Shown here piece after piece: positions 4,255-62,959 of a DNA stretch of 64,000 nt. Below the pieces are notes generated by a model. It was not told the DNA's origin, made no database searches, and was given only the letters and a program-made list of their open reading frames with translations. A program made the translations under genes and the position numbers. Positions within the stretch are counted from its first letter, which is position 1. Each line of letters opens with the position of its first letter. This stretch comes from Nannocystis bainbridge (GTDB taxonomy: Bacteria; Myxococcota_A; Polyangia; Nannocystales; Nannocystaceae): the NCBI RefSeq assembly GCF_028368995.1, contig NZ_JAQNDL010000001.1, positions 2,464,001-2,528,000 on the forward strand. The letters run 5' to 3'.

Positions 4255-4306
4255 TCACCTTCCCTTTCGCACAGGTTCTTTCGTACAGGACTCTTCCGCC
4301 ATGTCG
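4255..4306. repeat. 14-bp-period palindromic decamer array (4 units) overlapping the RBS and start codon of the TolC gene
   Basis: Cores CCTT 4258, CAGG 4272, CAGG 4286, CATG 4300. Confidence 0.6.
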
Positions 4307-5899
4307 CTTGTTTGGTCCGTCGCTCTGACGCTGATGGCCCCGGCCCCGCAGGGCCCCCCGCCGCCGCCCACCCGCCAAGTCCCCGCCGCCGCCGACGCGG
4401 CCGTGTTCGACGCCACCGCCTACCTGCGCGACGGCCCGCTCGCCGACGCGCTCGCGCCGAAGCCCGGCGGCCTCACGGCCGACAAGGTCGCGGTGCAGGC
4501 GATCGCCGAGTCACCGTCGGTCGCCGCCAAGGAGGCCCAGATCCAGGCCGCCGCGGCCAAGCTCGATCAGACGATGATCGCCTTCCTGCCGCAGCTCTCG
4601 GGCAAGGCCGGCTACACCCGCATGTCCAAGGCCGCGATCGCGTTCGGCGGCGGCTACAGCGTCGGCGCCGCCACGGGCCCCGAGGCCGGCGGCGACCCGA
4701 TCCCGATCGGCATCGGCCCGTGCGCCATGGGCTCGCCGCAGATGTGCACGGTCGATCCGAACACCGGCCAGCCGCTCACCCTCGTGGTCGCGCCGCCGTT
4801 CAAGATCCAGATCCCGCTCAACTCCTACTCGCTGCAGGCCCAGCTGGCGGTCCCGATCTCGGACTACATCCTCTCGCTGCTGCCGGCCAAGCGCGGCTCC
4901 GAGACCCGCCGCGACGCCGTCGCCCTCGCCCGCGACGCCGAGCGCGTCAAGGTCGAGACCGACGCCCGCCTCGCCTACTACAACTGGCTGCGCACGATCG
5001 CCTCGGTGGTCGCCGTCGAGGACTCGCTGCGCCGCGTCAAGGCGCGCGCGCTCGACGTCGAGAACCTGTTCCACGCCGGCAGCGCGACCAAGGCCGAGGT
5101 GATGCGCCTGGCCGCCCAGATCGCCCAGATCGAGCAGGCGATCAACGACGCCCAGGTGTTCCGCGCGACCGCGGAGCAGGGCCTGGCGATCATGCTCAAC
5201 GACCAGGGCATCGACTTCGTGCCCGGCGAGGACGTGATCGAGCTGCCGCCCGACATGGCCGACATCGGCAACCTCGAGGGCCTGATCCGCGAGGCGCAGA
5301 GCAAGCGGCTCGAGCTGAAGTCGATGGAGAAGAGCATCGGCGCGGTCGACTACGGCATCAAGGCGACCCGCGCCGGCTACTTCCCGCGCCTCGACGCCTT
5401 CGCCGAGGCGACCTACGCCAACCCGAACCAGCGGTTCTTCCCGCTGGCGCCGGTGTGGCGCGGGTCGTGGTCGGTCGGCGCGCAGCTGACCTACTCGCTC
5501 AACTCGGCCCTGCGCACGCGCGCCGAGATCCGCGAGTACAAGGCCAACAAGCGCGAGCTGATGGCCCAGATCGAGCTCCTGCGCCGCGGGATCGCCATGG
5601 AGGTCACCCAGGCCTTCCTCGCCCGCAACAAGGCCATCGCCGACATCGAGCTCAGCGCCCGCACGCTCGAGTCCGCGGTCGAGGCCTACCGCGTCGCCTC
5701 CGAGCTGTTCGCCGCCGGCTCGGCGACCACCAACGACATCATCGACGCCGAGGCCGACCAGCTGACGGCGATCCTGCGGATCGTCAACTCGCGCATCGAC
5801 CTCCGCACCGCCAACGCGCGCCTGCTCTACGCCACCGGCCGCATCAAGCCCAACACCGTCCAGGTCTACGACACCCGCGACAAGGCGACCCGCGGGTAG
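4301..5899 (+). CDS. TolC-family outer membrane efflux protein
   Basis: Signal peptide, two OEP-like helical repeats (AFLPQLS; AGYFPRLD); third gene of the RND operon. Confidence 0.9.
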   Translation: MSLVWSVALTLMAPAPQGPPPPPTRQVPAAADAAVFDATAYLRDGPLADALAPKPGGLTADKVAVQAIAESPSVAAKEAQIQAAAAKLDQTMIAFLPQLSGKAGYTRMSKAAIAFGGGYSVGAATGPEAGGDPIPIGIGPCAMGSPQMCTVDPNTGQPLTLVVAPPFKIQIPLNSYSLQAQLAVPISDYILSLLPAKRGSETRRDAVALARDAERVKVETDARLAYYNWLRTIASVVAVEDSLRRVKARALDVENLFHAGSATKAEVMRLAAQIAQIEQAINDAQVFRATAEQGLAIMLNDQGIDFVPGEDVIELPPDMADIGNLEGLIREAQSKRLELKSMEKSIGAVDYGIKATRAGYFPRLDAFAEATYANPNQRFFPLAPVWRGSWSVGAQLTYSLNSALRTRAEIREYKANKRELMAQIELLRRGIAMEVTQAFLARNKAIADIELSARTLESAVEAYRVASELFAAGSATTNDIIDAEADQLTAILRIVNSRIDLRTANARLLYATGRIKPNTVQVYDTRDKATRG

Positions 5900-5917
5900 C
5901 GCCCGCGCGAACGACTG

Positions 5918-5986
5918 AAGGGGCATGTCCGTACGGACATGCCCCTTTTGCCATGTCTGAACGGACATGCCCTCGCGGACATGCCC
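5918..5986. repeat. 14-bp-period palindromic decamer array (5 units) between convergent tolC-like gene and obgE
   Basis: CATG at 5924, 5938, 5952, 5966, 5980; 5918-5947 is a perfect 30-nt palindrome. Confidence 0.9.
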
Positions 5987-5995
5987 GCCGGACCG

Positions 5996-7222
5996 CTAGC
6001 CCTCGGTCGGCGCCGGGCCGGTGACGGTGCCGCGGCGGACCATGTCGACGCGGCGCCACAGCGCCTCGAGCAGCTCCGGCACGCCCTCGCCGGTGCGCGC
6101 CGAGATCGGGAACAGCGGGATGCCCTGGGTCCGCAGCAGCTTGCGCAGCGGCCCCACCACCTCCTGACCCTCCGGCGTGTCGATCTTGTTGAGCGCGACC
6201 ACCCGCGGGCGGCCGTCGAACATCGAGCCGTACTGCCCGAGCTCCTTCTCGAGCGCCTTGAGGTCGGCCATCGGGTCGCGGCCAGGCGTCGGGTCGGGCG
6301 AGAGCAGGTGCAGCAGCACGCGCGTGCGCTCGAGGTGGCGCAGGAAGTCGAGGCCGAGGCCGCGTCCCTCGCTGGCGCCGTGGATGAGGCCCGGCACGTC
6401 GGCGACCACGAGCGAGCGCTCGCCGGCCAGCGCGACCACGCCGAGCTGCGGCACCAGGGTGGTGAACGGGTAGTCGGCGACCTTCGGGCGCGCGCGGCTG
6501 ATCGCGCGGATGAAGGTCGACTTGCCGACGTTGGGGAAGCCGACGATGCCGACGTCGGCCAGCAGCTTGAGCTCGAGGCGCAGCCAGTACGCCTCGCCGC
6601 CGACGCCAGGCTCGGCGAAGTCGGGCGCGCGGTTGGTCGAGGTGCGGAAGTGGACGTTGCCGCGGCCGCCGAGGCCGCCGTGGGCCACGATCAGCTCCTG
6701 CCCGTGGAACGTCAGGTCGCCGAGCTGCTCCCCGGCCTCGAGCTCCGTCTCGCGCCGGTCCTTCTCGGCCTGCGCGCGGCGGATCGGCCCCGACTTCTGC
6801 GCCCGCACCGGCTCCGGGATGTCGGTGCCGTCGTCGGTCCAGGCGATCGCGCCGATCTCGTCGAGCTCCTCGCCGACGTCGTCGGCCAGCCACGGCGGCC
6901 GCTCGCCGGGCTCGCCCGCCAGCGCCTCGAAGAACACCGTGGTGCCGACCGGCACGCGGATCCGGAGGTCGTTGCCCGAGCGGCCCGTCATCTTGTTCGG
7001 CCCGCCGGGGCGGCCGATCTCGGCCGCGAAGTGCTGGCGAAATTTGAGGTCCAGCAGCGTCGTCAAATGATCGTCGGCGACAAAGACGACATCGCCGCCC
7101 TTGCCGCCGTCACCGCCCGCGGGACCCCCGTCGGGCACGAACTTCTCACGGCGCCAGCCGACCAGCCCGTCGCCGCCTCGCCCTGCGCGGACGACGATCC
7201 GGACCTGGTCGATGAAGCGCAT
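5996..7222 (-). CDS. obgE: GTPase ObgE/CgtA
   Basis: Gly-rich Obg fold, G1 GFPNVGKS, YPFTTL, DVPG, NKID; adjacent to rpmA and rplU. Confidence 0.97.
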   Translation of the reverse strand: MRFIDQVRIVVRAGRGGDGLVGWRREKFVPDGGPAGGDGGKGGDVVFVADDHLTTLLDLKFRQHFAAEIGRPGGPNKMTGRSGNDLRIRVPVGTTVFFEALAGEPGERPPWLADDVGEELDEIGAIAWTDDGTDIPEPVRAQKSGPIRRAQAEKDRRETELEAGEQLGDLTFHGQELIVAHGGLGGRGNVHFRTSTNRAPDFAEPGVGGEAYWLRLELKLLADVGIVGFPNVGKSTFIRAISRARPKVADYPFTTLVPQLGVVALAGERSLVVADVPGLIHGASEGRGLGLDFLRHLERTRVLLHLLSPDPTPGRDPMADLKALEKELGQYGSMFDGRPRVVALNKIDTPEGQEVVGPLRKLLRTQGIPLFPISARTGEGVPELLEALWRRVDMVRRGTVTGPAPTEG

Positions 7223-7225
7223 CGC

Positions 7226-7516
7226 TCACTCCGCAGCGGCGGCAGCGTCTGCCTGGGCCGCGAGCGGGTCGATGGCGATGAACGCCTTGCGCTCGTGGCC
7301 CCGCTTGTAGAAGCGGACCGTGCCTTCGACCAGCGCGAACAGGGTGTAGTCCTTGCCGGTGCCGACGTTCGGACCAGCGTGGAAGCTGCTGCCGGCCTGA
7401 CGGACCAGGATGTTGCCGGCGCGCACGACTTCGCCGCCGAACCGCTTCACGCCGCGGTTCTGCGAGTTCGAGTCGCGGCCGTTCTTGATCGAACCTTGAC
7501 CTTTTTTATGTGCCAT
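7226..7516 (-). CDS. rpmA: 50S ribosomal protein L27
   Basis: [31 protein letters not shown]. Confidence 0.98.
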
Positions 7517-7538
7517 CGTCGTTCTCCAGCGGCGCTGT

Positions 7539-7859
7539 TCAGCCCGTGATCGCGGTGATCTTAACCTCGGTGTAGGCCTGCCGGTGGCCCTGCTTCTTGC
7601 GGTAGTTGGTGCGCTTGCGGAACTTGTAGACGATGAGCTTGGGCCCGCGCCCGTGGCTCACGACCTTGCCCTCGACCTTGGCGCCGTCGACCAGCGGCTT
7701 GCCGATCTTGACGGTCTCGCCCTGGCCGACGAGCAGCACCTCGAAGTTGATGGTGGCGCCGGCTTCCACCGGGAGCTTCTCGACGCGCAGCACCGAGCCG
7801 GTGTTGACGCGGAACTGCCTCCCGCCGGTACGAATGATGGCTTGCTGGTTCTCGGACAC
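7539..7859 (-). CDS. rplU: 50S ribosomal protein L21
   Basis: [12 protein letters not shown] and [10 protein letters not shown]; GTG start inferred at 7859. Confidence 0.96.
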
Positions 7860-8054
7860 GAAGCGCTCGCACTCTCTGGGGCGATCCGCCCGCCCACGCG
7901 GCAGCCAGATGGTGGCTGCGACCGCCCGGATGCTCTTCGAGACCCTCGCCGGGCGCGAGGGAACAGGCTTATATGCGTGGCCGCAGGGGCCGGTCAAGCC
8001 GCAGAGGCGCGGCGGAGGTCACGCGCACGGCGCGCATGAGCCGCCGCTGCGATC

Positions 8055-9584: not shown

Positions 9585-9731
9585 GACTCCGCTCCTGCTG
9601 CCCGCCGAGGCGAGCTACGAGAACCCATCATACGAACATTCCCCGCGGGCACGCGTGGCGAGATGCACGCTCTTTCCGATTTTTCGCTAAACTCTGGGTC
9701 CACCCCGGACAATGTAGGATAAATCGTACCC

Positions 9732-10349
9732 ATGACTACCCTACAGCCTTCGACCGCGCCGCGAGCCCTTCGGGGCCTCCGCCATGCGCGCTGGACCGTT
9801 GTTTGGATGTTGCTGGGGACTGCGCTGCACGTCCCTGGCTGTGCCACCTCACGCCTGGAGGCGGCGCGATCTCCCGCCGGGGCGGCCGCGGAGCCAGGCG
9901 GCGGCGAGGCCTGCGAACGCTGGCCTTCGGGGCAGCGCGACCAGATCGCGGCGGTCCAGCCGCACGTGCAGTCGGCCGCGCGCAAGCACAAGCTCGACCC
10001 GCGGCTCATCAACGCGGTGATCTGGGTCGAGAGCAAGTTCAACGCCCGCGCGCGCGGCCCGGGCGGCACGCAGGGGCTCATGCAGCTGATGCCGTCGACC
10101 GCGCGCGAGCTGGCGAGCAGCCTCGGCGAGCGCTCGCGCCCGCTCGACGCCGGCTTCAACGTGCGCGCCGGCAGCCTCTATCTGGCGCGGATGATCCGCA
10201 AGTTCGACGGCAGCACCGAGCTCGGGCTGGCCGCCTACCACGGCGGCCCGGGGCACGTGCTCAAGTGGCGCAAGGCCGGCCGGCGCGGCGTGCCCGAGGG
10301 CAGCAAGAAGTACGTCGAGAAGATCCTCGCGGCCAAGAAGATGTTCTGA
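9732..10349 (+). CDS. Lytic transglycosylase (SLT domain), probable lipoprotein
   Basis: VIWVES (catalytic Glu), GLMQLMP, LAAYHGGPG. Confidence 0.9.
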   Translation: MTTLQPSTAPRALRGLRHARWTVVWMLLGTALHVPGCATSRLEAARSPAGAAAEPGGGEACERWPSGQRDQIAAVQPHVQSAARKHKLDPRLINAVIWVESKFNARARGPGGTQGLMQLMPSTARELASSLGERSRPLDAGFNVRAGSLYLARMIRKFDGSTELGLAAYHGGPGHVLKWRKAGRRGVPEGSKKYVEKILAAKKMF

Positions 10350-10444
10350 GGGCCCTGCCCTCACGGACAGGACCCTCAGGACAGGGCGGTTACGACATAT
10401 CCGCGAGAACATGTCCACAAGGACATGTCGCGGCAGACAGCCGG
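10337..10444. repeat. 14-bp-period palindromic decamer array (8 units) between convergent SLT and ABC-F genes
   Basis: Cores at 10340, 10354, 10368, 10382, 10396, 10410, 10424, 10438 (GATG, CCTG, CAGG, CAGG, CATA, CATG, CATG, CAGC). Confidence 0.85.
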
Positions 10445-10445
10445 C

Positions 10446-12053
<1,608 letters not shown>

Positions 12054-14943: not shown

Positions 14944-14950
14944 GGCGGCG

Positions 14951-15574: not shown

Positions 15575-15583
15575 GAGCTGGGC

Positions 15584-17642: not shown

Positions 17643-19943
17643 ATGTTCGACCCCACCTCCGGCCTGCTCGCGCTCCTCGTCGCCGTCTTCGCGTCCGCCG
17701 GCCTGCTGGTCGCCGTCTTCGGGCGCGCGCCGCAGCTCCGCGGTCTGGCCCAGGCGCTCCGCCCCAGCCGCGCGCGGCGCCGGTTGTTCGCCGGCGCCGG
17801 CCTCGGCGCCATCGTCGGGGCCGCGTTCGCGCTGGCCGCCGGAGGGCCCGGCGCGATCGCCTGGTGGTGGCTGGCCGGGCTGCTCGGCGGCGGGCTCCAC
17901 TGGGCCGAGGCCCGTCTCGGCGCCGCCGAGCGCGTCGATGACATGTCCCGAGGTTCCGGTCGCTTCGGACATGTCCTGAAGTTCATGTCCGCTTGCGCAG
18001 GACTGGCCGCCGCCCTCGCCGCAGGCGGGCTGTTGCTCGCCCAGCAGGGCGCCGAAGTGCTGCGCGACTCGCTCGGCCTGGCGCCGTGGGCGGCCGGGCC
18101 GGTGCTGGCCGGGCTGCTGCTCGCGTTGGCGCTGCTCGCCCGCCGTCGCCCCGGCGGCGACGACCTCGCCGGCCTCGGCGCCCTCGCCGGCTTCGCCTTG
18201 CTGGCGTGGACCGGGGTGGCGCTGGCCGCCCTGCTCGCCGCCCCGGGCGCGCTCGCGGCTGGTCTTTCGGCCATGGTCGAAGGGGCATGGTCGGGCGAGG
18301 CCGCGCTGGCCGGCGCGCTCGCGGCCGCGGGTCAAGCTGTCCTTTGGAGCAGCTTCGCCGCGGGCATCGGCGGCGCGGCCGACGGCGACCCGTCCGAGCC
18401 GGCCGAGCGGGTGGTCGGCGTCGCGCCGATCACGGCCGCGGTGGCCACCCTCGCCGGTCTGCTGGTGCTCGCGGGCGGCGACCCGCGCGCGCCGATCGTC
18501 GCCGCCGAGGCGAGCGCGCTGCCCGGCGCGCCCGCTGGCACGGTCGCGCTCGAGCGGTACATCGGCGTCGGCCTGCAGCCGAGCGACTACGGCCAGACCG
18601 TCGTGCTCGCCGGCGACCTCGGCCTCACGCCGGGCAAGCGCTACGAGGTCGTGCTGCGCGCCGACCCGCGCGGGCATCGGGCCGGCGAGGTCATCGCCGG
18701 CGACAACCTGGTGGTGGTGCCGACCTACGCCGTCGCGGCCGACGTCGACAGCGTCATCCTGCGCGACAAGGACCCGGCGCGCGCCGGCAACCCCGGCTTC
18801 GACGTCCACATCGCCTGCACCCGCGAGCGCGTGAAGACCCGCGTCGGCGAGTTCTACAAGCTGCGCCCGCGCGACCCCAACATCAACCTTTTCCAGTTGA
18901 TGCGGGCGCGCGACCTCGACGGGCCGTACGTGCGGCTGCGCGACTATCACTTCGTCGCCAGCGTCCGCCCCGCCGTCGCCCTCGGCAGCAACGAGACGCG
19001 TCACCTTCTTTACGAGGAGCCGCGCCCGGACGACGCGCCGGCCGACCCCACGCTGCGCGAGCTGATCACGCTCGGCTTCGCCGGCCCCTACCTCGATCCG
19101 GGCGGCGCGACCGAAGCGCCTCCGTTCGCCCTCGCCGCCGCGCCCGGGGCCGCGCTGACGCTCGATCAGCGCGTGCACCTCCGCCTCGACGCGCCGGTGC
19201 GCGGCCTGGAACTCGGGTTCGTCAATCGCCTCGGCGAGCTCGAGGTGCCGCCGTGGGATCTGCTCGCGGGCGTTACTGACGCCGTGCTGCCCCACCGCGA
19301 CGACCCCGGGCTCGACGTGCACGTGCCGGTCCGCAGCCGCCTCGCGTTCGGCCGCTTGCGCTTCACCAGCGCCGACCCCGCGATCGTGTTCGCCGAGCTC
19401 TCCAAGTCGCATCCCGATCACGGCGCGCCGCGGCTGGTGCCGCCGAGCCATCGCTTCGCCGCCGAGGTGCGCGCGTCGACCCGCGTGCCCGCGCCGCGGC
19501 CCGACGGCCCGGTGTTAATTCCGCTTCACCGCGACCTGCATCCGACCGGCAATCCGGGCTACTCGCTTTACACGCCGCATCCGGCCGAGCTGCTGCTCGC
19601 GGGCATGCAGGCGCCGGTGCGCGACCAGTTCGGCGCCGCGCAGGTGCTGCCCGGGCTGCGCGCGGGACTCGGGCGGGCGGGCGACATCGCCGGCGGCCTG
19701 GTCCTCGGCGTCCTCACCCTCGCGGGCTTGATGTTCTGGCTGCGCCGGGGCCAGCGCTTCGCCGCGGGCTGCTTCGGCGGCGGTGAATTCGGGGTCGCGC
19801 TGGTGTTCCTCGTCTGCGTCTTCGCCGGTCCCGCGTGCGATCCGGCCGCGCTGCTGCGGCTCGCCGTGCCCGCGCTGGCGCTGGCCGCCGTGCTCGGACT
19901 CACCGTGATCCTCACCCGTCTGCAGCGGCTGCGGGGGCCTTGA
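17643..19943 (+). CDS. Degenerate alanine/glycine:cation symporter (AGCS)-like membrane protein with a large extracytoplasmic insertion
   Basis: GLGAIVGAAFALAAGGPGAIAWWWLAGLLG...AEARL resembles the AGCS motif GTGNIAGVA.A...GGPGA.FWMW. Confidence 0.6.
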   Translation: MFDPTSGLLALLVAVFASAGLLVAVFGRAPQLRGLAQALRPSRARRRLFAGAGLGAIVGAAFALAAGGPGAIAWWWLAGLLGGGLHWAEARLGAAERVDDMSRGSGRFGHVLKFMSACAGLAAALAAGGLLLAQQGAEVLRDSLGLAPWAAGPVLAGLLLALALLARRRPGGDDLAGLGALAGFALLAWTGVALAALLAAPGALAAGLSAMVEGAWSGEAALAGALAAAGQAVLWSSFAAGIGGAADGDPSEPAERVVGVAPITAAVATLAGLLVLAGGDPRAPIVAAEASALPGAPAGTVALERYIGVGLQPSDYGQTVVLAGDLGLTPGKRYEVVLRADPRGHRAGEVIAGDNLVVVPTYAVAADVDSVILRDKDPARAGNPGFDVHIACTRERVKTRVGEFYKLRPRDPNINLFQLMRARDLDGPYVRLRDYHFVASVRPAVALGSNETRHLLYEEPRPDDAPADPTLRELITLGFAGPYLDPGGATEAPPFALAAAPGAALTLDQRVHLRLDAPVRGLELGFVNRLGELEVPPWDLLAGVTDAVLPHRDDPGLDVHVPVRSRLAFGRLRFTSADPAIVFAELSKSHPDHGAPRLVPPSHRFAAEVRASTRVPAPRPDGPVLIPLHRDLHPTGNPGYSLYTPHPAELLLAGMQAPVRDQFGAAQVLPGLRAGLGRAGDIAGGLVLGVLTLAGLMFWLRRGQRFAAGCFGGGEFGVALVFLVCVFAGPACDPAALLRLAVPALALAAVLGLTVILTRLQRLRGP
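17939..18004. repeat. 14-bp-period decamer array inside a CDS (5 units)
   Basis: CATG 17942, CCGG 17956, CATG 17970, CATG 17984, CAGG 17998; a further pair at 18272 and 18286. Confidence 0.8.
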
Positions 19944-20045: not shown

Positions 20046-21698
20046 ATGACGCGCCCCCAGCTCTCGATCTCCGCGGCCCTCGCCCTCGCCCTCGCCCCTG
20101 CGTGCGGCGATGACACCGGCGGCGCCGCCACCGGCGACGGCCCGGCCACCAACATCACGGCGACCGACGGTCCCGGGGGGACGAGCGAGGGCGGCAGCGA
20201 GTCGGACGGCGGGGTCACGACCGCGGCGCCGGAGCCGTTCGTGCCGGTGCCGGCGGTCGGCGGCATCGAGCTCGAGTGGGTCGAGGCCAACCAGGGCATC
20301 GGCGTGGCGATCGGCCGCGACGGCGCCGGCGTCGGCGGGTCCGACCGCACCTCGTACCTGCTGCAGAACCGGCTCACGCTGATCCGCGCGTTCTGGCGCA
20401 AGCTGCCCGAGGACTGGGTCCCGCGCGAGATCGAGGCCCGGCTCATCATCAGCGGCTACCCCGAGGGCGACAAGGTGCTGTCGAGCAAGGCGCTGGTCGA
20501 CGGCGCGGCGTTCGTCGGCAACCTCGAGAAGAGCTTCTACTGGGGCCTGATGCCGGCCGAGGTCATCTCGGGGCTCAAGTACCGCATCGAGCTGTGGGAG
20601 ACCGAGAAGGGCTGGGCGCAGATCGATCCGTCCACGCCCGCGGGCTCGACCCCGCCCAATCTGCCGGTGTCCGGCAACGCCTTCATCGGCGTCGAGGACA
20701 GCTACCAGATCATGAAGGTCACCATCGTCCCGTACAACTACAACTTCGGCGGCTGCGTCACGACGCCCGACCTGTCGGAGTCGACGATGAAGAAGTTCGA
20801 GACGTTCATGTTCATGATGAACCCGATCGAGCGGCTCGAGATCACGCTGCACGAGCCGATCGACTGGCAGGGCGAGCTGACGCATTTCGGCCAGCTCAAC
20901 CAGTTCATGGTCGACCTGCGCCAGCAGGACGGCGCGCCGCCCGAGACCTACTACTACGGCTACGTCGACGTGTGCTCGGGCGGCCTCGGCGGCGCCGGCG
21001 GGCAGGCGATCGACATCCCCAGCGGCGCGCTCAAGAACGACGCGTGGAAGCGGACCTCGTCCGGTCTGTCGCTGCCGGGCAACACCGACTACGCGGCCGA
21101 GACCTTCGTCCACGAGGTCGGCCACTCGCAGGGTCGCTACCACATCGCCTGCAGCGGCGAGGCCGGGACCGACAACAGCTATCCGCACCAGGGCGGCGAC
21201 ATCGGCGAGTGGGGCTTCGGCATCAACAACTTCAAGCTCTACCACCCCACCGTGCACAAGGACTACATGACCTACTGCCACCCGGTGTGGGCCTCGACCT
21301 TCGGCTGGAACAAGGTGTTCCCGATCATCCAGCAGCTGAGCTCGTGGGACACGGACGCCCCGCCCGCGCCCGAGCAGGGCGACGTGGTCCTGCTCGGCGT
21401 GATCCAGCCCGACGGCACCGAGTCGTGGATCACCACCCCGGGCGCCGTCGACCCGAACAACCTCAGCGCCGTGCAGCACGTCGAGTTCTTCGCCGGCGGC
21501 GAGTCCGTCGCCGTCCAGGCCGCCGAGGTCCGCCCGCAGCCCGACAGCGACGCCGTCAACATCGTCGTCGCCCTGCCCGAGGGTTTCGATGATGTCACCC
21601 AGATCGCCCGCGTCGACGGCGCTCGCCGCACGATCACCAGGGCCGAGGACATCACGATCAGCCACAAGTACCGCGCGCTGCCGCTGAGCAACAAGTAG
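20046..21698 (+). CDS. Lipoprotein zinc metalloprotease (metzincin, M66-like)
   Basis: Lipobox APAC, Thr/Gly linker, HEVGHSQGRYH, Met-turn DYMTY. Confidence 0.8.
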   Translation: MTRPQLSISAALALALAPACGDDTGGAATGDGPATNITATDGPGGTSEGGSESDGGVTTAAPEPFVPVPAVGGIELEWVEANQGIGVAIGRDGAGVGGSDRTSYLLQNRLTLIRAFWRKLPEDWVPREIEARLIISGYPEGDKVLSSKALVDGAAFVGNLEKSFYWGLMPAEVISGLKYRIELWETEKGWAQIDPSTPAGSTPPNLPVSGNAFIGVEDSYQIMKVTIVPYNYNFGGCVTTPDLSESTMKKFETFMFMMNPIERLEITLHEPIDWQGELTHFGQLNQFMVDLRQQDGAPPETYYYGYVDVCSGGLGGAGGQAIDIPSGALKNDAWKRTSSGLSLPGNTDYAAETFVHEVGHSQGRYHIACSGEAGTDNSYPHQGGDIGEWGFGINNFKLYHPTVHKDYMTYCHPVWASTFGWNKVFPIIQQLSSWDTDAPPAPEQGDVVLLGVIQPDGTESWITTPGAVDPNNLSAVQHVEFFAGGESVAVQAAEVRPQPDSDAVNIVVALPEGFDDVTQIARVDGARRTITRAEDITISHKYRALPLSNK

Positions 21699-21711
21699 GG
21701 GCTGACCTTCC

Positions 21712-21763
21712 GGTCAGGTCTGAAGGGACATGTCGCTCGCGACATGTCCCTTCGCGCATTGTC
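21712..21763. repeat. 14-bp-period decamer array (4 units) between convergent genes
   Basis: CAGG 21715, CATG 21729, CATG 21743, CATT 21757. Confidence 0.8.
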
Positions 21764-33476: not shown

Positions 33477-33663
33477 CTCGTCCTCCTGATGCGCCGACCA
33501 TCGCGACACGGTGCGGCCGCCCTCCTTAGCACCCTCGACGATCGGTGCAACCGAGCCCGCCGCGAACGACGGCTGACGAGACGTCTGCCGCGCCCCCGCG
33601 GGCTCGCGCGGGCTCGACCCCCCGCCTCGAGCGGCCGGAGGCGATCTGTCCTTCAGGACATCA

Positions 33664-34722
33664 TCAGGCTGCGGTGGACGGTCCCACGCTCAGCGGCCGC
33701 GGCAGTTGCATCGTCAGGCAATGCAGGCTGCCGCCCTGTTCGATGAGCGGCAGGCAATCGACGCCCACCACCTCGCGCCCGGGGAACACCCCGGCCAGCC
33801 GCGACAGCGCCTGCGCGTCGGCCGGGTCGTCATAGGTGGGCACCAGCACCGCGCCGTCGAGGATGAGGAAATTGGCGTAGGTCGCGGGCAAGCGGCGCCC
33901 GTCCTCGCCGAAGCGCGGGCGCGGCCACGGCAGCGGCACCAGCTCGTACGGTTCGCCGGCGGCGGTGCGCAGCCCGGCCAGCTCGTCGGCCATGGCCTGC
34001 AGCTCGTCCCAGTGCGAGTCGTCGGCGTCGGTGCAGCTCTGGTAGGCGATCGTGCGCGCGTCGCAGAGCCTGGCCAGCGTGTCGATGTGCCCGTCGGTGT
34101 CGTCGCCCTCGAGCCAGCCGCGGCGCAGCCACAGCACCCGCGTCGCGCCGAGGTGGCGCTGCAGCGCCGACTCGACCTCTGCGAGCCCGAGGCCGCTCCG
34201 GTGATCGGACAGCAAGCAGCGCTCGGTGGTGAGGATCGTGCCCTCGCCGTCGGACTCGACGCTGCCGCCCTCGAGGATAAGCGGCACGACCTCGAGCGGC
34301 GCCGCGCCGAAGGCCCCGAGCGCGTGCAGGCGCTGCGGGACGACGTCGTCCCGGGAAGCCGCGAACTTGCCGCCCCAGCCGTTGAACTCGAAGTCGAGCA
34401 CCCGCGGCGTCCCCGCGATCGTCACCGTCAGCGGCCCGTGATCGCGGGCCCAGGTGTCGTCGCAGGCGACCGCGTGCAGCCGCGCCCGCGCGTCGTCGAC
34501 CCCGGCCCGGCGCAGCAGCGCCCGCACGTGGCCGGCCAGAGCCGCGTCGTGGCACGCGATCACCACGACCTCGCGCAGCGCGATCTGCCGCGCGATCTCG
34601 ACGAACACCGGCTCGACCCGCGCCAGCATCGGGCCCCAGTCGCTGTCCGCGTGCGGCCACGTCAACATCACCCCGGCCTGCGGCGCCCACTCGGCCGGCA
34701 GTACACGTGTCTCTTCAGCCAT
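33664..34722 (-). CDS. Agmatine deiminase / PPAD family protein
   Basis: PAEW, WARDHGP, LEGGS, DDTDGHIDT, GGSLHCLTMQ. Confidence 0.93.
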   Translation of the reverse strand: MAEETRVLPAEWAPQAGVMLTWPHADSDWGPMLARVEPVFVEIARQIALREVVVIACHDAALAGHVRALLRRAGVDDARARLHAVACDDTWARDHGPLTVTIAGTPRVLDFEFNGWGGKFAASRDDVVPQRLHALGAFGAAPLEVVPLILEGGSVESDGEGTILTTERCLLSDHRSGLGLAEVESALQRHLGATRVLWLRRGWLEGDDTDGHIDTLARLCDARTIAYQSCTDADDSHWDELQAMADELAGLRTAAGEPYELVPLPWPRPRFGEDGRRLPATYANFLILDGAVLVPTYDDPADAQALSRLAGVFPGREVVGVDCLPLIEQGGSLHCLTMQLPRPLSVGPSTAA

Positions 34723-34768
34723 GTCCCTTCGCCCCTGTCCCTTCAAACATGTCTCTTCACTCAGGGCG
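34703..34768. repeat. 14-bp-period decamer array (5 units) spanning an intergenic gap, a stop codon and a start codon
   Basis: CGTG 34706, CATG 34720 (start codon), CCTG 34734, CATG 34748, CAGG 34762. Confidence 0.8.
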
Positions 34769-37817: not shown

Positions 37818-38099
37818 CATGAGATGTCCTTCGGGACATATCGCATGACCCGCGGCCGCCGGCGCGCCATCGCGCCGGCGGCTCTATTGATACGTATTTT
37901 CAATGCTATGATGATTTCGCGCCGCGGCCCGATCGAGGGTCTGCACCGCCGGCCTCAGGGGGATCCGCCCGTCCGCATCGGCTCCGTCGTGCTGTCTCGC
38001 GCCTGCTCCGGGCGGTTTCAAACCTGGCCTTGACGCCCTGTCCCGACTACCCATCGCTGTCGCTTGACGGCCGGCCGTCCTCCGCGTCTCTTGAGCGAC

Positions 38100-50761: not shown

Positions 50762-50766
50762 ACCTT

Positions 50767-50885
50767 TTACATGTCACATTGGACATGTCCTATATGCCAT
50801 GTCCAATGCGACATGTCATCGCTCGCAGCGAGCGGACGGCCGTGACGCCACCCGACCTTCGGGACATGTCCCCGAAAACATCCGC
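50767..50885. repeat. 14-bp-period decamer arrays (5 units plus 2 units)
   Basis: CATG 50770, 50784, 50798, 50812; CAGC 50826; then CATG 50865 and CATC 50879. Confidence 0.85.
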
Positions 50886-51671: not shown

Positions 51672-52514
51672 ATGACCCGGCGCAGACCACCCACCGACGA
51701 AGGATTCAGACACCCCGGCGATTTCGGACAGGGGCCGCGATTCCCCGGCGGATTCGCGGAATCACGTGCTCCTCTCGCCGATGCCTCGTACCAGGGCTAC
51801 GGCGCGTACGCGACGCTCGACGGCACTCGTGTCGACGAGTCCGAATACGCCGAGCTCGACTATACAGGCTTGGAGCTCGAGGCAGACCTCTCCCCTGACC
51901 ATACCGGCCGCGGCCCGCGCGGCTACCGTCGCAGCGACGAATCGATCCGCGACGACCTCCACGTCATCCTCACGGCGCACGACGAGATCGACGCCAGCGA
52001 CGTCGAGGTCCTCGTCGAGCGCGGCGAGGTGCTGCTGCGCGGCAACGTCCGCCGCCGCGCCACCAAGCGGCTGGTCGAGGACATCGCCTACCAGATCGGG
52101 GGGGTCCGCGACGTCACCAACCTGCTGCGGATCGGCCCGCCTGCGGCCCCACGACCGCAGCCCGAGCAGTTCGCCGACGACGACGTCGAGAGCAAGCTGC
52201 GCAGCACGACCAAGGACGATCACCCGTCGCGCCGCGACGCGTGGATCAGCGAGCACCTGCGCGACCGCGGCACCCTCGAGGAGGAGCTGCAGCGCACCCT
52301 CGACCGTCGTGATTTGCGCAGCCACGCGTACACCGGCCCGCGCGACACCTCGGCCGGCGAGCGCATCACCGCCCCCGAGCGGCCCCTCATCGTCCCCGAG
52401 CCGCGCTGGCCCGCGCCCACGGCCGTCGACGAGGAGGTCGAGCTCGAGAACAAGGACCTCGACGCCGAGGAGCTCAAGCTCGAGGACGTCGACGAGGACG
52501 CCACCGGATCATGA
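51672..52514 (+). CDS. BON domain protein
   Basis: GRGPRGYRRSDESIRDDL...GEVLLRGNV...GVRDVTNLL; GGAGGAG RBS. Confidence 0.85.
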   Translation: MTRRRPPTDEGFRHPGDFGQGPRFPGGFAESRAPLADASYQGYGAYATLDGTRVDESEYAELDYTGLELEADLSPDHTGRGPRGYRRSDESIRDDLHVILTAHDEIDASDVEVLVERGEVLLRGNVRRRATKRLVEDIAYQIGGVRDVTNLLRIGPPAAPRPQPEQFADDDVESKLRSTTKDDHPSRRDAWISEHLRDRGTLEEELQRTLDRRDLRSHAYTGPRDTSAGERITAPERPLIVPEPRWPAPTAVDEEVELENKDLDAEELKLEDVDEDATGS

Positions 52515-52563
52515 CCTGTCCGAAGGAGCATGCCCGACCGGGCATGTCCCTTCGCACATGTCC
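52512..52563. repeat. 14-bp-period decamer array (4 units) between convergent genes
   Basis: CCTG 52515; CATG 52529, 52543, 52557. Confidence 0.85.
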
Positions 52564-52571
52564 CGAGCGCC

Positions 52572-56509: not shown

Positions 56510-57649
56510 GTGGTGCCCGCGCCTGCCTCCACCCTCGCCCTCGTGCTCGCGCTCGCGCCCGCGGGCTTCGACCTCGAGTGGCTGGCCCCGGAAGGTTGCC
56601 CGGGAGCCGACGCGGTCGTCACGGCCACCGCCCGGCTGCTCGGCCGGCCCGCCGAGGTCGACCCCTCGCGGCGCGTCCGCGCCCGCGCCGTGGTCGTCCG
56701 CGAGCCCCGCGGCTTCCGCCTCGATCTCGAGCTGCAGAGCGGCGCCGGCCTCGATCGCCGCAGCCTCCGCGATCGCCGATGCCAGGTGCTGGCTGACGCG
56801 GCCGCCAAGATCGTCGCCACCGCCGTCGACCCCAGCCTCGCCGCCGGGGTCCCGCCGGTGCTGCCGCCGGAGTCCGATGAGACATGGCGTGAAGGACATG
56901 CCCCATCGAACATGTCCCCGAGTCTCGCCCCTCCGAATCCCCTGTCCGATGGGACATGGCGTGAAGCACCTGCCCCATCGACCATGTCCCCGGGGTCAGC
57001 CCCAGCGCTCGTCGAGGGCCCGCCCACGGCCCCCGTCTCGCCGCTCGCGCCCGCGGGAGACGACCCACTCGCTACGCCGCCCGCGGGCGACGATCCGCTC
57101 GCTACGCCCGCCCCGACGTCGCCCCCGCCCGACCCGCTGCGCGCCTCGCTGCGCCTCGCCGGCGTGTTCGACCAGGGCAGCCTGTCTGGCCCGACCGGCG
57201 GCCTCGCGCTCGCGCTCGGCGTCATGCGCCGGCGCTTCCGCGTCGAGCTCGGGTTCGCCGGCCTGGCCCCGCGCGAGGCCCGACCGGACCCGGCCGAGCC
57301 TGCCGGTGCACGCCTGTCCTTGTGGACAGCCACGCTCCGCGCCTGCGGCGTCGCCGGGCTGCGGCCGCGGCTCGAGCTCGGCGGCTGCGGCGGCCTCGAG
57401 GCCGGGGCCTTGCTCGGCGCCGGCTTCGGGGTCGAGGCCGCGCGTACGCGCGCGCAGCCGTGGCTCGCGGTGGTCGTCGGGCCCGAGCTCGCGGTCCCCG
57501 TCGCGCCGCGACTCGCGGTCACCCTCGGGGTCGACGCGGTGGTCCCGCTGGTGCGCCCGCAGTTCGTCCTGGACGGCGTCGGATCGGCGTTTCGCGCCAA
57601 CCCTGCGGCCTTCCGCGCCGTCCTCGGCCTGCAGCTTAGAATCCCGTGA
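56510..57649 (+). CDS. Hypothetical exported protein with probable C-terminal beta-barrel; first gene of the ECF cassette
   Basis: Signal-like N-terminus, LEWLAPEGCP, Pro linker, amphipathic beta-strands; stop overlaps the sigma start (GTGA). Confidence 0.7.
   Translation: MVPAPASTLALVLALAPAGFDLEWLAPEGCPGADAVVTATARLLGRPAEVDPSRRVRARAVVVREPRGFRLDLELQSGAGLDRRSLRDRRCQVLADAAAKIVATAVDPSLAAGVPPVLPPESDETWREGHAPSNMSPSLAPPNPLSDGTWREAPAPSTMSPGSAPALVEGPPTAPVSPLAPAGDDPLATPPAGDDPLATPAPTSPPPDPLRASLRLAGVFDQGSLSGPTGGLALALGVMRRRFRVELGFAGLAPREARPDPAEPAGARLSLWTATLRACGVAGLRPRLELGGCGGLEAGALLGAGFGVEAARTRAQPWLAVVVGPELAVPVAPRLAVTLGVDAVVPLVRPQFVLDGVGSAFRANPAAFRAVLGLQLRIP
56880..57003. repeat. Two 14-bp-period decamer blocks (72-bp duplication) in frame within a CDS
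   Basis: CATG 56883, 56897, 56911; then CCTG 56941, CATG 56955, CCTG 56969, CATG 56983, CAGC 56997. Confidence 0.8.
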
Positions 57650-58245
57650 CGGACCGCGAGCCCGGCGGCCAATGCCCGCCCGACATGCCTCCGCTCGCCG
57701 CGCGGTCCGGTCCTTCGGGGGTCGGCCCCGAGTTCGCCGTCGTCTTCCGCGAACACCACGACTTCGTGTGGCGGATCCTCCGCTACTTCGGCGTCCCGCC
57801 TGCGACCGTCGACGACAAGGTCCAGGACGTCTTCCTCGTCGTCTACCGCCGCTGGGACGACTTCGACCGCAGCAGCTCCATGCGCAGTTGGCTGTACGGC
57901 ATCGCCCGCCGGGTCGCCGCCGACCTGCGCCGCGGCACCGCGCGGGCCGAACGCAGGCTACGCGCCGTGCCCGAACCCACGCCCGCCGTCACGCCCGACC
58001 AGGCGCTCGCGCAGGCCGAGGCCGCCGCGTTCGTCGAGCGCTTCCTCGCCACCCTCGACGACGACAAGCGCGAGGTCTTCGTCCTCGCCGAGCTCGAGTT
58101 CCTCACCGCGCCCGAGATCGCCGCCGCCACCGACGCCAACCTCAACACCGTCTACTCGCGACTTCGTGCCGCGCGCGCCCTGTTCGATCGCGCCGTGCGA
58201 CGCTTCGCCCCCGAACTGCGGAGGACCCATGGCCAGCCACGATGA
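57646..58245 (+). CDS. ECF RNA polymerase sigma factor
   Basis: DDKVQDVFL, RSWLYGIARR, REVFVLAELE, NTVYSRLRAAR. Confidence 0.92.
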   Translation: MTDREPGGQCPPDMPPLAARSGPSGVGPEFAVVFREHHDFVWRILRYFGVPPATVDDKVQDVFLVVYRRWDDFDRSSSMRSWLYGIARRVAADLRRGTARAERRLRAVPEPTPAVTPDQALAQAEAAAFVERFLATLDDDKREVFVLAELEFLTAPEIAAATDANLNTVYSRLRAARALFDRAVRRFAPELRRTHGQPR

Positions 58246-58999
58246 CGACTCGCGCGACCTCCTGCTCGGCTATCGCGAGCGGCACGCCCCGTCGCCGCAG
58301 GCCGCCGCCGACAACTGGCAGCAGCTCCTGCGGCGCATCGACGCCGGCGAGCCCGCGCCCGTCCTCGGCGCTGGCGAGGCACCGATGCCCGCCCCTGCCT
58401 CCGCCGCGCGCACCTGGGCCTTCGGCTTGCTCGCCGCGGCCGCCGCCGCGCTGCTCGTGGCTCGCTTCGTCTGGCCCGAGCGCTTCTCGGCCCGCGGTCG
58501 CGACCTCGGCGCCGCCGCGCCCTACCAGCACGAGCCCGACGCGCGCCCGCAGAGCCTCGCCGTCCCCGCGCCCGCGCCGACCGCCTCCACGCCGCGAGCT
58601 GTCCCCGAAGACAGCCCTTCGCTCGCGCCGCCCACGGCCGCGAGCGTCCAGCGACCTGTCCCTTCCACCATGCCCGAAAAGCCAGCCGCCGAGATCGACC
58701 TCGCGCGCGAGCTCGCCGCCGTCCGCGCCGCCGCCCAGGCCGTGCGCGACGGCGACGGCGCGGCCGCTCTCGGTCACGCCGACGCTTACCTCGCGGCCCA
58801 CCCGCGCGGCTCGCTGGTCCCCGAGGCCCGCCTGCGCCGACTCGAAGCGCTGTGCCTGCTCGGGCGCGAAGACGAGGCCCGCCGCGAAGTCGACGCCTTC
58901 CTCGCCGACTACCCACAATCACCGTTGCGCGAGCGCGCGACCGCGGCCTGCAAATCGTCTCACGGGTCCGACGACCGGCGGCCATCGCCCGGTCAATGA
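58229..58999 (+). CDS. Putative anti-sigma factor (single TM, C-terminal TPR-like helices)
   Basis: Overlaps the sigma gene; TM segment; YLAAHPRGSL.PEA...FLADYPQSPL. Confidence 0.75.
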   Translation: MASHDDDSRDLLLGYRERHAPSPQAAADNWQQLLRRIDAGEPAPVLGAGEAPMPAPASAARTWAFGLLAAAAAALLVARFVWPERFSARGRDLGAAAPYQHEPDARPQSLAVPAPAPTASTPRAVPEDSPSLAPPTAASVQRPVPSTMPEKPAAEIDLARELAAVRAAAQAVRDGDGAAALGHADAYLAAHPRGSLVPEARLRRLEALCLLGREDEARREVDAFLADYPQSPLRERATAACKSSHGSDDRRPSPGQ

Positions 59000-61243: not shown

Positions 61244-61953
61244 CTCTGCTCCTGACCTGCCCCGACGACCCTGTCGAAGGGGACATCTTCGTCCCAGCCG
61301 GCGACGATCGCCACCGACGCGCTGGCGCCGAGGCGCGACGCCCCGGCGGCCAGCATGGCCCTCGCGGTCGCGGCGTCGGCGATCCCGCCGCTGGCCTTGA
61401 CCCCCACGTCCGGGCCGACGGCCGCGCGCATGCGCTGGACCGCCGCGACCGTCGCTCCGCCCGGGCCGAAGCCGGTCGAGGTCTTCACGAACCGCGCCCC
61501 CGCGGCCACGCTGAGGCGGCACGCGACGTCGATCTCGTGCGGCTCCAGCAGCGCCGTCTCGAGGATCACCTTCGTCAGGTGGGCCCCGTCGCCCGCGCGC
61601 ACCACTCCCTGGATGTCCGAAAGGACAGCCGCTTCATCGCCGTCGCGCAGGGCTCCGAGCGCGATCACCATGTCGAGCTCCTCGGCCCCGTCGGCCAGCG
61701 CCTGCGCCGCCTCGGCCGCCTTGATCGCCGGCGAGTTGGCGCCGAGCGGGAAGCCGATCACCGTGCACACCTTCGCGCCCGCGCCCAGCGACGCCAGCGT
61801 GCGGCGGGCCAGCGCGACCCGGCTCGGCTGCACGCATACGCTGAAGAACCCGCCCTCGGCGGCCTCGCGGCACAGCTGCTCGACCTGCGCCGCGGTCGCG
61901 GTCGCGCGCAGCAGCGTGTGGTCGATGTGCGCGGCCAGCTCGGCGCGGCGCAT
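61240..61953 (-). CDS. deoC: Deoxyribose-phosphate aldolase
   Basis: IDHTLL, VIGFPLGA, KVILET, FVKTSTGF, VKASGGI, RLGAS. Confidence 0.96.
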   Translation of the reverse strand: MRRAELAAHIDHTLLRATATAAQVEQLCREAAEGGFFSVCVQPSRVALARRTLASLGAGAKVCTVIGFPLGANSPAIKAAEAAQALADGAEELDMVIALGALRDGDEAAVLSDIQGVVRAGDGAHLTKVILETALLEPHEIDVACRLSVAAGARFVKTSTGFGPGGATVAAVQRMRAAVGPDVGVKASGGIADAATARAMLAAGASRLGASASVAIVAGWDEDVPFDRVVGAGQEQR

Positions 61954-61958
61954 GGGCC

Positions 61959-62357
61959 TCAATCCAGGCACTGACGCAGCTCGTTGGCGATGTCGTTCGG
62001 CAGGTCGGGGCAGTCCTCGATGTCGTCGAGGGCATCGACGCCGCAGCCGAGGCGCGCGAGGTCGGTGCAGGTCTTGCCGTTGAGGCAGCCCGCGAGGCGG
62101 TTGTTGGCCGCGGTGAGGCAGTCGAGCTGGGCCTCGTAGTTGCCCTCGGCGTTCTTGAACAGCGCCTCGACGCACGCCTGCTCGCCCGCGGTGGGGGGCG
62201 CGTCCTCGCGGCACTCCTCTTCGTTGGGGGTGCAGCCGCACTCGGCCAGCTCCTTGGCGACCAGGGACTCGTTGAAGTCGTCGACGTGCGGACCGACCCC
62301 GCAACCCGCGGCGAAAGCGACCAACAAGGACACGATGGGCATCGAGAGGCGCTTCAT
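61959..62357 (-). CDS. Cys-rich helical lipoprotein
   Basis: Lipobox AAGC; multiple Cys. Confidence 0.75.
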   Translation of the reverse strand: MKRLSMPIVSLLVAFAAGCGVGPHVDDFNESLVAKELAECGCTPNEEECREDAPPTAGEQACVEALFKNAEGNYEAQLDCLTAANNRLAGCLNGKTCTDLARLGCGVDALDDIEDCPDLPNDIANELRQCLD

Positions 62358-62477
62358 GGGCAATTCGCTCCTGCGGCCGAGGCGGCCGGCGGGGCGGACC
62401 ATAACAGCCGGGACCGCGCGCCACAACCGCGTTATCTCCCCGAGGAGCGGCGCGGACTGGTACATTGCGCGCACGTG

Positions 62478-62882
62478 ATGGTCGCGCGCTGGTTCTGGTC
62501 CTTCGCCTTCACCCAGCTGGTGGAAGTGCCGATCTACCTGCGAGCGCTGGGCGGACCCGACCAGGCGCCGAGGCTCTCGCGGCCGCAGCGGTTGGGGCTC
62601 GGATTCCTCGCCTCGGCGCTGACGCACCCCTACGTGTGGTTCGTGTTCTTCGGGGTGTTCTACTCGCGCGCCTACGAAGATCTCGGCTACCACTGGCCGT
62701 TCGTCACCGCCCACCGCTACACCATCTACTTCATCGTCGCCGAGACCTTCGCCGTGGTCGTCGAGGCCCTGCTGCTGCGCGGCTGCGGCCTCCGCCGCGC
62801 CTTCTTGTGGGCCCTGCTCGCCAACGCCACCAGCGCCGGCCTCGGCTTCTTCAGCCGCCACTTCCTCGGCTGGCCCGGATGA
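62478..62882 (+). CDS. Small multi-TM membrane protein
   Basis: TQLVEVP...ASALTHP...AETFAVVVEA...LANATS. Confidence 0.75.
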   Translation: MVARWFWSFAFTQLVEVPIYLRALGGPDQAPRLSRPQRLGLGFLASALTHPYVWFVFFGVFYSRAYEDLGYHWPFVTAHRYTIYFIVAETFAVVVEALLLRGCGLRRAFLWALLANATSAGLGFFSRHFLGWPG

Positions 62883-62959
62883 CATGCGCAAAAGGACAGG
62901 TCCACAAGGACCTGTCCTTCACGGCATGCCCTTCGGGTCATGCCCGAAGGGTCATCAAT
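62880..62959. repeat. 14-bp-period decamer array (6 units) between convergent genes
   Basis: CATG 62883, CAGG 62897, CCTG 62911, CATG 62925, CATG 62939, CATC 62953. Confidence 0.9.

Follow-up and report, generated by a model that had tools for sequence, protein, structure and literature searches.

Phased arrays of a palindromic decamer at gene 3' ends in a Nannocystis lineage

Introduction

In the 64,000-nucleotide stretch of the Nannocystis bainbridge genome analysed here (the window; contig NZ_JAQNDL010000001.1, positions 2,464,001 to 2,528,000), copies of a short palindrome centred on CATG stand exactly 14 bp apart in small arrays that recur at many loci, mostly at the 3' ends of genes. 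What kind of element are these arrays, and what keeps their sequence and spacing? A sequence-only reading had described them as an unrecognised system and offered three options: phased sites for a polymerising or nucleoid DNA-binding protein, a hairpin substrate mobilised in trans by an HUH/RAYT-like enzyme, or an element read through CATG methylation.

The repeat family is confirmed here as real, statistically robust and dispersed. Its best-supported reading, by analogy with known systems, would be a Nannocystis-lineage family of repetitive extragenic palindromes (REPs), resembling bacterial interspersed mosaic elements (BIMEs) by being numerous, regularly clustered and extragenic but transcribed. 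The sequence-only reading was thus right that the family is dispersed and lineage-restricted, and missed what folding, covariation and position suggest to be the simplest reading of neighbouring inverted repeats, namely transcript-end hairpins (stems of 10-17 bp closed by a tetraloop and placed after stop codons).

Periodicity and unit structure

The window has a G+C content of 70.6% and contains 229 CATG sites, among them every one named in the sequence-only reading (5924/5938/5952/5966/5980, 15498-15554, 50770-50812 and 52529-52557). Autocorrelation of the 229 sites gives 22 pairs at 14 bp, 13 at 28 bp, seven at 42 bp and three at 56 bp, with none at 13 bp and one at 15 bp. For a more general description of the unit, a 14-mer matrix (xxGGACATGYCCxx) was trained on the phased units of the window and applied with a match cut-off of >7 bits, with 50 second-order Markov simulations of the window as the control. 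The matrix gives 170 matches, whereas the simulations average 70 and never exceed 89; this total is partly circular, the matrix being derived from the same window, a circularity that affects neither the phase result nor the autocorrelation of the CATG sites themselves. Matrix pairs at 14, 28 and 42 bp number 37, 22 and 12, against 0.06, 0.10 and 0.10 in the simulations (maximum 1), and fall to none at 13 bp and two at 15 bp. Within the window, the peaks predicted at 14, 28 and 42 bp therefore lie far above the Markov controls.

Chaining of the in-phase matrix matches yields 19 arrays of 2-7 units each (Table 1), in agreement with the earlier count of about 19 loci. About 16 are convincing loci with one common core sequence. 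Three two-unit arrays are weak: that at 18267 is probably due to chance, and those at 58650 and 61265 are similar. Two arrays that had been read as eight units (10340-10438) and six units (62883-62953) are indeed present, with seven and five scoring units, respectively, and a degenerate eighth and sixth (10335-10432 and 62878-62947). In-phase units with CAGG, CCTG, GATG or CATA in place of CATG at the centre also occur. Tandem Repeats Finder (TRF) alone under-detects the arrays because their spacers vary, the window arrays reaching only 63-92% matches, and a loosened hairpin pattern was dropped as a detector of the family after it caught unrelated GC-rich palindromes.

The module consists of a self-complementary decamer, GGRCATGYCC (with variants such as GGACAGGTCC and GAACAGGTTC), and an AT-rich spacer of 4 nt, which together give the 14-bp period. 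Because the core is its own reverse complement, neighbouring units are direct and inverted repeats at the same time and any two of them can pair (10-17 bp stem, 4-nt loop). The strongest signal is the hairpin ...CATGTCC-N4-GGACATG...; two units with their loop make up a hairpin of 24-34 bp, and the canonical element of ~32 bp, GAAGG-core-N4-core-CCTTC, is seen in its extended form in several copies. GGACA half-sites follow one another at 7-bp steps, their orientation alternating. The GGACATGCCC and GGGCATGTCC forms are found in both alternating and serial order, and with a self-complementary core no orientation can be assigned to them.

Position relative to genes

In a junction list curated by hand from codon-position G+C (GC3) and Pfam, phased arrays occupy six of the nine convergent junctions of the window, none of the eight divergent junctions and five of the 29 co-directional ones. 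The earlier statement that the longest arrays fill convergent gaps holds for these six junctions; the three convergent junctions that are free of arrays have gaps of -8, 4 and 49 nt. Arrays usually start on a stop codon or within ~20 nt of one, and the density of matrix matches is ~10.5 per kb in non-coding sequence versus 1.9 per kb in coding sequence. At the syntenic SLT/ABC-F junction, two relatives that lack phased arrays (loci L025 and L005 of the comparison set described below) carry an extra gene and a hairpin-plus-T-run terminator, recognized by eye.

Table 1. Arrays and single hairpins of the family in the window. Folding z values are given for the two strands of the region.
Position	Units and context	Folding z	Further observations
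4267..4308	3-unit direct-type array (GCACAGGTTC-like units) between AcrB stop (4245) and OEP start (4301)	0.27, -0.02	no hairpin signal; orthologous in L001-L004, with one exact 14-bp indel
5919..5988	5-unit array filling the OEP(+)/Obg(-) convergent junction	-5.7 (+), -7.5 (-)	first hairpin flanked by GAAGG...CCTTTT
10335..10432	7 scoring units and a degenerate eighth, filling the SLT(+)/ABC-F(-) convergent junction	-5.8, -7.0	first unit overlaps the SLT stop codon
15493..15562	5-unit array, MOSC(+)/DnaJ(-) convergent junction	-5.1, -6.5	orthologous in L001-L004; sole U-tract terminator-like match on an array within 4000-22000
17937..17992	3 scoring units (span of 4 units); tRNA-Sec lies ~315 nt upstream	-1.4, -1.3	weak folding; at the 5' edge of the next + strand open reading frame
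18267..18294	2-unit match		weak, low score; in open reading frame or coding-like sequence (coding-phase plot)
21696..21751	4-unit array from the stop codon of an M66-like gene (+), convergent with an FG-GAP gene (-)	-5.0, -6.1	
33647..33660	single TGTCC-N4-GGACA hairpin just 3' of the stop codon of PAD (agmatine deiminase-like), a - strand gene		
34715..34756	3-unit direct-type array (TGTCCCTTC half-units) between the PAD start and the stop codon ending a 165-aa open reading frame (-)	0.03, -0.01	
37818..37845	2-unit hairpin directly after the stop of the first PD40-like paralogue		TTCG loop
40242..40269	2-unit hairpin 4 nt past the stop of the second PD40-like paralogue	-3.8, -3.2	TCCG loop
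48311..48383 (-)	two hairpin copies within a 327-aa protein, in its Pro/Ala/Thr-rich linker		inside a 45-bp tandem repeat
50765..50820	4-unit array 4 nt past the VWA gene stop, upstream of an OmpA-like gene, co-directional	-5.7, -6.5	
52510..52565	4-unit array filling the convergent junction with a DUF4215 gene (-)	-4.7, -3.5	overlaps the BON gene stop
56878..56991 (+)	two arrays (3 and 4 units) in the disordered linker of a 378-aa protein (56513-57649)		72-bp block duplication
58650..58677	2-unit match		weak, low score; in open reading frame or coding-like sequence (coding-phase plot)
61265..61292	2-unit match		weak, low score; in open reading frame or coding-like sequence (coding-phase plot)
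62878..62947	5-unit array and a degenerate sixth, filling a convergent junction	-7.3, -6.5	overlaps a stop codon; includes a perfect GGACAGGTCC/GGACCTGTCC pair

The PD40-like genes in Table 1 are tandem paralogues (35556-37817 and 38064-40238, + strand) that are 95% identical over 725 aa and contain repeat regions rich in Thr/Gly/Asp. A separate hairpin of the family stands after each of them, and divergence is far greater between the two hairpins than between the coding sequences; since the hairpins follow such similar tandem paralogues, the two may share an origin and may not be independent. Among the other features of the window, the tRNA-Sec gene lies at 17529-17623 on the + strand (Rfam 70.8 bits; ARAGORN anticodon TCA), and the organism therefore probably makes selenoproteins. 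A stretch between Obg and L21 (7223-7541), 96% conserved across five species, probably holds the L27 gene, which falls below the 100-aa cut-off for open reading frames. An FG-GAP repeat protein gene contains tandem repeats of 141 and 75 bp (24684-24966, - strand; TRF score 444, 91% matches).

Hairpin folding and covariation

Fourteen array regions of the window were folded as RNA on both strands and scored as z against 200 shuffles. A z of -3 or lower is reached on at least one strand in 10 of the 14 regions, and the long arrays in convergent gaps give z values of about -5 to -7.5 on both strands, with none of the 200 shuffles as stable. The - strand folds better in seven regions and the + strand clearly better in two, while the other five differ by ~3 kcal/mol or less.

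Consensus folding of alignments of the window with four cultured Nannocystis species is consistent with conserved pairing. In the Obg-side alignment (the 5919 array) 93% of cells pair and seven of 43 pairs have changed on both sides; 0-3 of 500 shuffles reach the observed covariation values, and slid controls pair at 28-49%. In the SLT/ABC-F alignment four of 30 pairs are compensatory, all of them in an outer stem extension built of 'spacer' bases. Across the five species the hairpins of these two alignments are 91-93% paired. Coming from five related sequences, the covariation evidence is suggestive.

Lineage distribution and turnover

The comparison set comprised 61 loci recovered with the window Obg protein from a collection of species-representative genomes. 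Obg is 93-94% identical to that of four cultured Nannocystis (N. exedens, N. pusilla, N. punicea and strain RBIL2; L001-L004), which are collinear with window positions 1-17,260 at ~92% nucleotide identity. Each of these four loci has 8-11 in-phase matrix pairs at 14 bp and L012, a Nannocystis metagenome-assembled genome (MAG) with 75% identity in Obg, has 10; the other 56 (among them additional MAGs of Nannocystaceae and Polyangia, Plesiocystis and 45 loci from outside the myxobacteria) have 0-2 each. Phased arrays are confined to these five loci. The hairpin motif TGTCC-N4-GGACA shows the same restriction, with 11 copies in the 64 kb of the window, 10 in 85 kb of L001-L004, five in 21 kb of L012, one in 18 kb of L025, none in 19 kb of L005 and L014, one in 111 kb of other Nannocystaceae/Polyangia loci and none in 702 kb of non-myxobacterial loci. 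No spacing from 0 to 8 other than 4 is found for these half-sites in the window, and spacings of 0-3 and 5-8 account for a single case across the window and all loci. The distribution of motif and phase over the 61 loci therefore indicates a family specific to a Nannocystis lineage.

The units of L012 are GGGACAGGTCG-like direct repeats, and its 10 phased pairs include no CATG pair at 14 bp. CATG is therefore not the defining feature of the family; the GGAC..GTC half-sites and the 14-bp period are. Only the G-rich strand of the L012 direct arrays folds, by way of G-U pairs (z -6.0 and -4.2 versus -0.4 and -1.4 for the C-rich strand). One of the arrays (18098-18223) is closer to the homogeneous minisatellite type, and obg is followed by a single CCTGTCC-GATC-GGACAGG hairpin. 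At 16355-16454 the same locus has three copies of a 36-bp super-repeat, composed of two 14-bp GGGACAGGTCG units and an 8-bp piece (GTGTCCGG), which makes TGTCC-GGAG-GGACA hairpins. The G-rich strand of all three L012 arrays is on the same DNA strand, regardless of the direction of the neighbouring genes. In two distant Nannocystaceae/Polyangia MAGs, two CATGTC-type units lie downstream of obg (L013, ~11538-11565) and an isolated GAAGTGTCC-TCTA-GGACAGATTTT is found at ~18834 (L009); these isolated units hint that single hairpins may be older than the arrays.

Orthology could be followed for four arrays in one ~17-kb neighbourhood of L001-L004. All four are at the orthologous place in all four species, with no empty site among them. 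Identity to the window is 80% at core positions, 88-96% at the central CATG and 56% in the spacers, compared with 89-94% at third codon positions of the flanking genes; the arrays as a whole therefore turn over fast while the centre of the core is held. Unit number varies in steps of 14 bp, as in an exact 14-bp indel at 4267 and an extra window unit at 10419. In N. exedens (L001, 6672-6879) the SLT/ABC-F junction is ~112 bp longer than in the window and L002-L004 and includes in-phase CCTGTCC units.

Copies inside coding linkers

Two genes of the window carry the motif within their reading frame. The 378-aa protein encoded at 56513-57649 (+ strand) has 20 other proteins as homologues and belongs to no Pfam family. 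Its units at 56878-56919 and 56936-56991 are in frame, and the peptides they specify are DETWREGHAPSNMSP and a copy similar to it. Seven of the nine homologues aligned (of 20 found) have the first of these peptides or a close variant of it; the second, a 72-bp duplication, is seen in the window alone. Codons within the units end in A or T in 17 of 39 cases, compared with 29 of 339 in the rest of the gene (p=6e-9). In the 327-aa protein (47782-48762, - strand) two hairpins in the linker encode PVPKD motifs, which are found in all seven homologues aligned (of 49 found), and seven of 25 unit codons end in A or T, against 17 of 302 elsewhere (p=3e-4). The A/T-ending unit codons of both genes indicate that the nucleotide motif persists against the strong codon bias of the genome. 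These intragenic copies argue that something recognizes or regenerates the core sequence itself.

An open reading frame on the opposite strand (56350-57759, -) was rejected as a gene, as its translation is junk-like whereas the + frame protein has homologues, Nannocystis-named ones among them. The 378-aa gene ends in an ATGA overlap with an ECF sigma gene at 57646, with apparent translational coupling, and its linker also contains a 30-bp tandem repeat (57048-57113) with a duplicated AGDDPLAT motif.

Proposed explanation and alternatives

We propose, at what we judge to be an even chance, that this REP/BIME-like family provides transcript-end hairpins for both converging transcripts and that its arrays have expanded by slippage. 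The hairpins would act on both convergent transcripts, either in termination or as a barrier to 3'-exonucleases, and the arrays may replace ordinary U-tract terminators of the kind that the two relatives without phased arrays carry at the SLT/ABC-F junction. As the two arms of each hairpin are also direct repeats, slipped-strand mispairing could gain or lose whole 14-bp units with the phase kept. A putative trans-acting factor would keep one core sequence at all sites.

Several observations weigh against this proposal. Three arrays fold poorly, with z of about 0 for the direct-type arrays at 4267 and 34715 and about -1.4 at 17937, and where neighbouring genes are co-directional the strand that is transcribed has no consistent folding advantage. 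One L012 array lies after a gene on the - strand, transcription of which would yield the C-rich, non-folding strand as RNA. Adjacent units are barely more complementary than random pairs of units (6.78 versus 6.49 of 10, p=0.022), which indicates that most of the pairing comes from the palindromic consensus and not from local compensation. A consensus terminator scan of 4000-22000 found three sites versus 5.5 expected, which is no enrichment, and a U-tract (>=5 T in 8) accompanies only one array hairpin in this interval, at 15530-15511 on the - strand; no hairpins other than those of the arrays are thus present at these junctions, and they mostly lack a U-tract. Template switching at quasi-palindromes can create compensatory changes without selection. 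The curation of the junction gene list by hand is a further caveat, and a role in termination does not account for arrays that lie within two coding linkers and are kept there despite codon bias. Finally, hairpins alone require neither one common sequence nor a fixed 4-nt linker between hairpins. Since hairpins alone leave the single core, the fixed linker, the hairpin-poor arrays and the intragenic copies unexplained, two alternatives stay alive.

In the first alternative, which we consider improbable but worth retaining, the arrays are REPIN-like non-autonomous mobile DNA: an enzyme of the RAYT/HUH type or of another kind, with its gene elsewhere in the genome, would use the hairpins as single-stranded DNA substrates and disperse or homogenize them, and any role at 3' ends would be secondary. 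The recurrence of one core at about 16 convincing loci in 64 kb, the limitation of the family to one genus-level lineage and an extragenic, promoter-avoiding placement like that of REPs fit mobility well. So do the block duplications, the ~112 bp of unit-bearing extra sequence in L001 and the atypical codons of the copies in the two coding linkers. Those same intragenic copies appear to be old, however, as their peptide motifs are present in most of the Nannocystis homologues aligned, and no filled/empty polymorphism is seen among arrays that are orthologous in four of four species at ~92% nucleotide identity. Moreover, the loci have only the 10-bp core in common, with differing loops and linkers, and they show neither a GTAG/CGTC tag nor, among the 47 window open reading frames scanned, any transposase family.

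The second alternative, which we also rate as unlikely, is that the units are phased sites on double-stranded DNA and that a lineage-specific dimeric or polymerising protein coats the arrays, for instance as a roadblock or topological barrier between convergent genes. It draws on the strict phase, which is the same in loops and linkers (37 pairs at 14 bp, none at 13 and two at 15), on the arrays at 4267 and 34715, where motif and phase are present with little hairpin potential, and on L012, where the period and the GGAC..GTC half-sites are kept as direct repeats without CATG. The conservation of cores while spacers drift and the retention of the motif in coding linkers despite codon bias point the same way. 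On the other hand, covariation reaches stem extensions beyond the core, for which a core-reading protein has no need; a step of 14 bp would set successive sites ~120 degrees apart around the helix and not on one face; slippage alone can keep phase; and no candidate protein was identified. More broadly, the cores could be sites for a Nannocystis-specific trans-acting factor, be it a coating protein or a non-RAYT machinery of propagation or conversion, with the arrays marking convergent junctions as roadblocks or topological barriers. Such a factor, for which we hold low expectations, would account for the strict phase, the hairpin-poor arrays, the CATG-less arrays of L012 and the motif retention in coding linkers.

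A neutral origin, in which slippage enlarges ordinary terminator hairpins, whose arms are self-similar, where the DNA is least constrained, and in which no function of its own attaches to an array, would suit the differences in unit number between species, the faster evolution of spacers and whole arrays than of third codon positions and the location of arrays in low-constraint convergent gaps and disordered linkers. It is very unlikely in view of the same core at unrelated loci and in a divergent Nannocystis MAG, the conservation of cores relative to spacers, the compensatory changes and a motif held against strong codon bias. Least credible of all, although no part of the unit is better conserved than its central CATG (88-96% across species), is an array of clustered methyltransferase targets sensed by a reader protein, an option weakened by the absence of CATG pairs at 14 bp among the 10 phased pairs of L012 and by the in-phase window units with other centres.

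The family may matter beyond this window. If the density of 19 arrays in 64 kb is true genome-wide, extrapolation to Nannocystis contigs of 11-13 Mb would give thousands of arrays, which would then be a major unannotated element in the way transcription units are ended and insulated in these genomes. A decamer on a fixed 14-bp period that is a direct and an inverted repeat at once offers a test bed for the slippage expansion of hairpin repeats and for a sequence-specific maintenance factor. The motif could also improve the annotation of terminators and operons in Nannocystis and could yield compact terminator parts for the engineering of these natural-product producers.

Comparison with known systems

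The family is apparently undescribed so far, in line with its earlier designation as unrecognised. Rfam at gathering thresholds matches tRNA-Sec only and none of the arrays, the array at 5905-6000 has no BLAST match in plasmid and phage collections, and full-text searches of the published literature (supplements not covered) returned no description of the family, the decamer matching only in p53 papers. A CRISPR array, in which repeats of 24-48 bp alternate with unique spacers of similar size, was rejected on the 10-bp units with 4-nt spacers, which are not of CRISPR length, and no Cas family is present among the 47 window open reading frames. The varied spacers and TRF match range of the window arrays do not fit a homogeneous minisatellite, as had also been noted from the sequence. 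A plasmid iteron or centromere array, which would stand at a few loci beside genes for replication or partition, was rejected on the dispersal of the arrays at gene 3' ends beside unrelated housekeeping genes, and a miniature inverted-repeat transposable element on anatomy.

A fixed step of half-sites is known from the ribbon-helix-helix protein omega of pSM19035, a polymerising dimer that reads half-sites at a fixed 7-bp step, direct or inverted. Heptad and iteron arrays of this type serve a few promoters or centromeres, not dozens of gene 3' ends, and are not known to show hairpin covariation. Rickettsia palindromic elements are palindromic repeats in frame within protein-coding genes, and the two Nannocystis linker copies resemble both them and intragenic REPs in this respect; unlike the Rickettsia elements, the Nannocystis copies are 28-42 bp long and lie in disordered linkers, with their peptides in most homologues aligned. 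The DNA uptake sequences (DUS) of Neisseria, the uptake signal sequences (USS) of Pasteurellaceae and the TRIT terminator motif of Mycobacterium are short, specific sequences in genome-wide excess, whose inverted pairs often make terminator-like hairpins after genes. They are not known to form 14-bp phased arrays, and nothing in the present analysis ties the Nannocystis core to the uptake of DNA.

Intrinsic (Rho-independent, often bidirectional) terminators share with the arrays a GC-rich stem-loop directly after the stop codon and between convergent genes and, in some cases, A-rich 5' and T-rich 3' flanks (GAAGG...CCTTTT at 5919). They differ in that the Nannocystis stems are common across loci, the hairpins are in tandem and U-tracts are mostly absent (one array match in 18 kb).

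The closest resemblance is to the REPs. These are described as short, GC-rich, imperfect palindromes of high copy number that are extragenic but transcribed, lineage-specific, situated at gene 3' ends and inside operons and clustered in regularly spaced arrays, with proposed roles in termination, mRNA stability and protein binding (PMC2817692, PMC3733652). The available portion of the latter contains no occurrence of Sorangium, Haliangium, Anaeromyxobacter, Stigmatella or deltaproteobacteria and lists an intragenic REP analysis among its authors' contributions (PMC3733652). The Nannocystis family is like the REP/BIME/REPIN elements of Enterobacteria, Pseudomonas and Stenotrophomonas in its stem-loop palindromes, its numbers (19 arrays in 64 kb) and its extragenic, transcribed and promoter-avoiding placement. 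It differs in lacking the GTAG/CGTC tag, as the sequence-only reading had remarked of the GTAG foot: GTAG/CTAC lies within 12 nt of only two of the 19 arrays, once as a TAG stop codon, and CGTC/GACG is found only by weak or intragenic arrays. That reading had likewise seen no transposase in the window; none was found among the 47 open reading frames, and no search was aimed at RAYT in the whole genome. The unit is a self-complementary 10-bp core on a strict 14-bp period in which every pair of neighbours can form a hairpin, and the loci have the core alone in common and not a whole element of 20-40 bp. BIME clusters consist of regularly spaced REPs whose orientation alternates; the Nannocystis arrays have a regular spacing of 14 bp, and their self-complementary core leaves orientation undefined. 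We therefore do not assign the family to the tagged REP superfamilies; by analogy, it appears to work like them.

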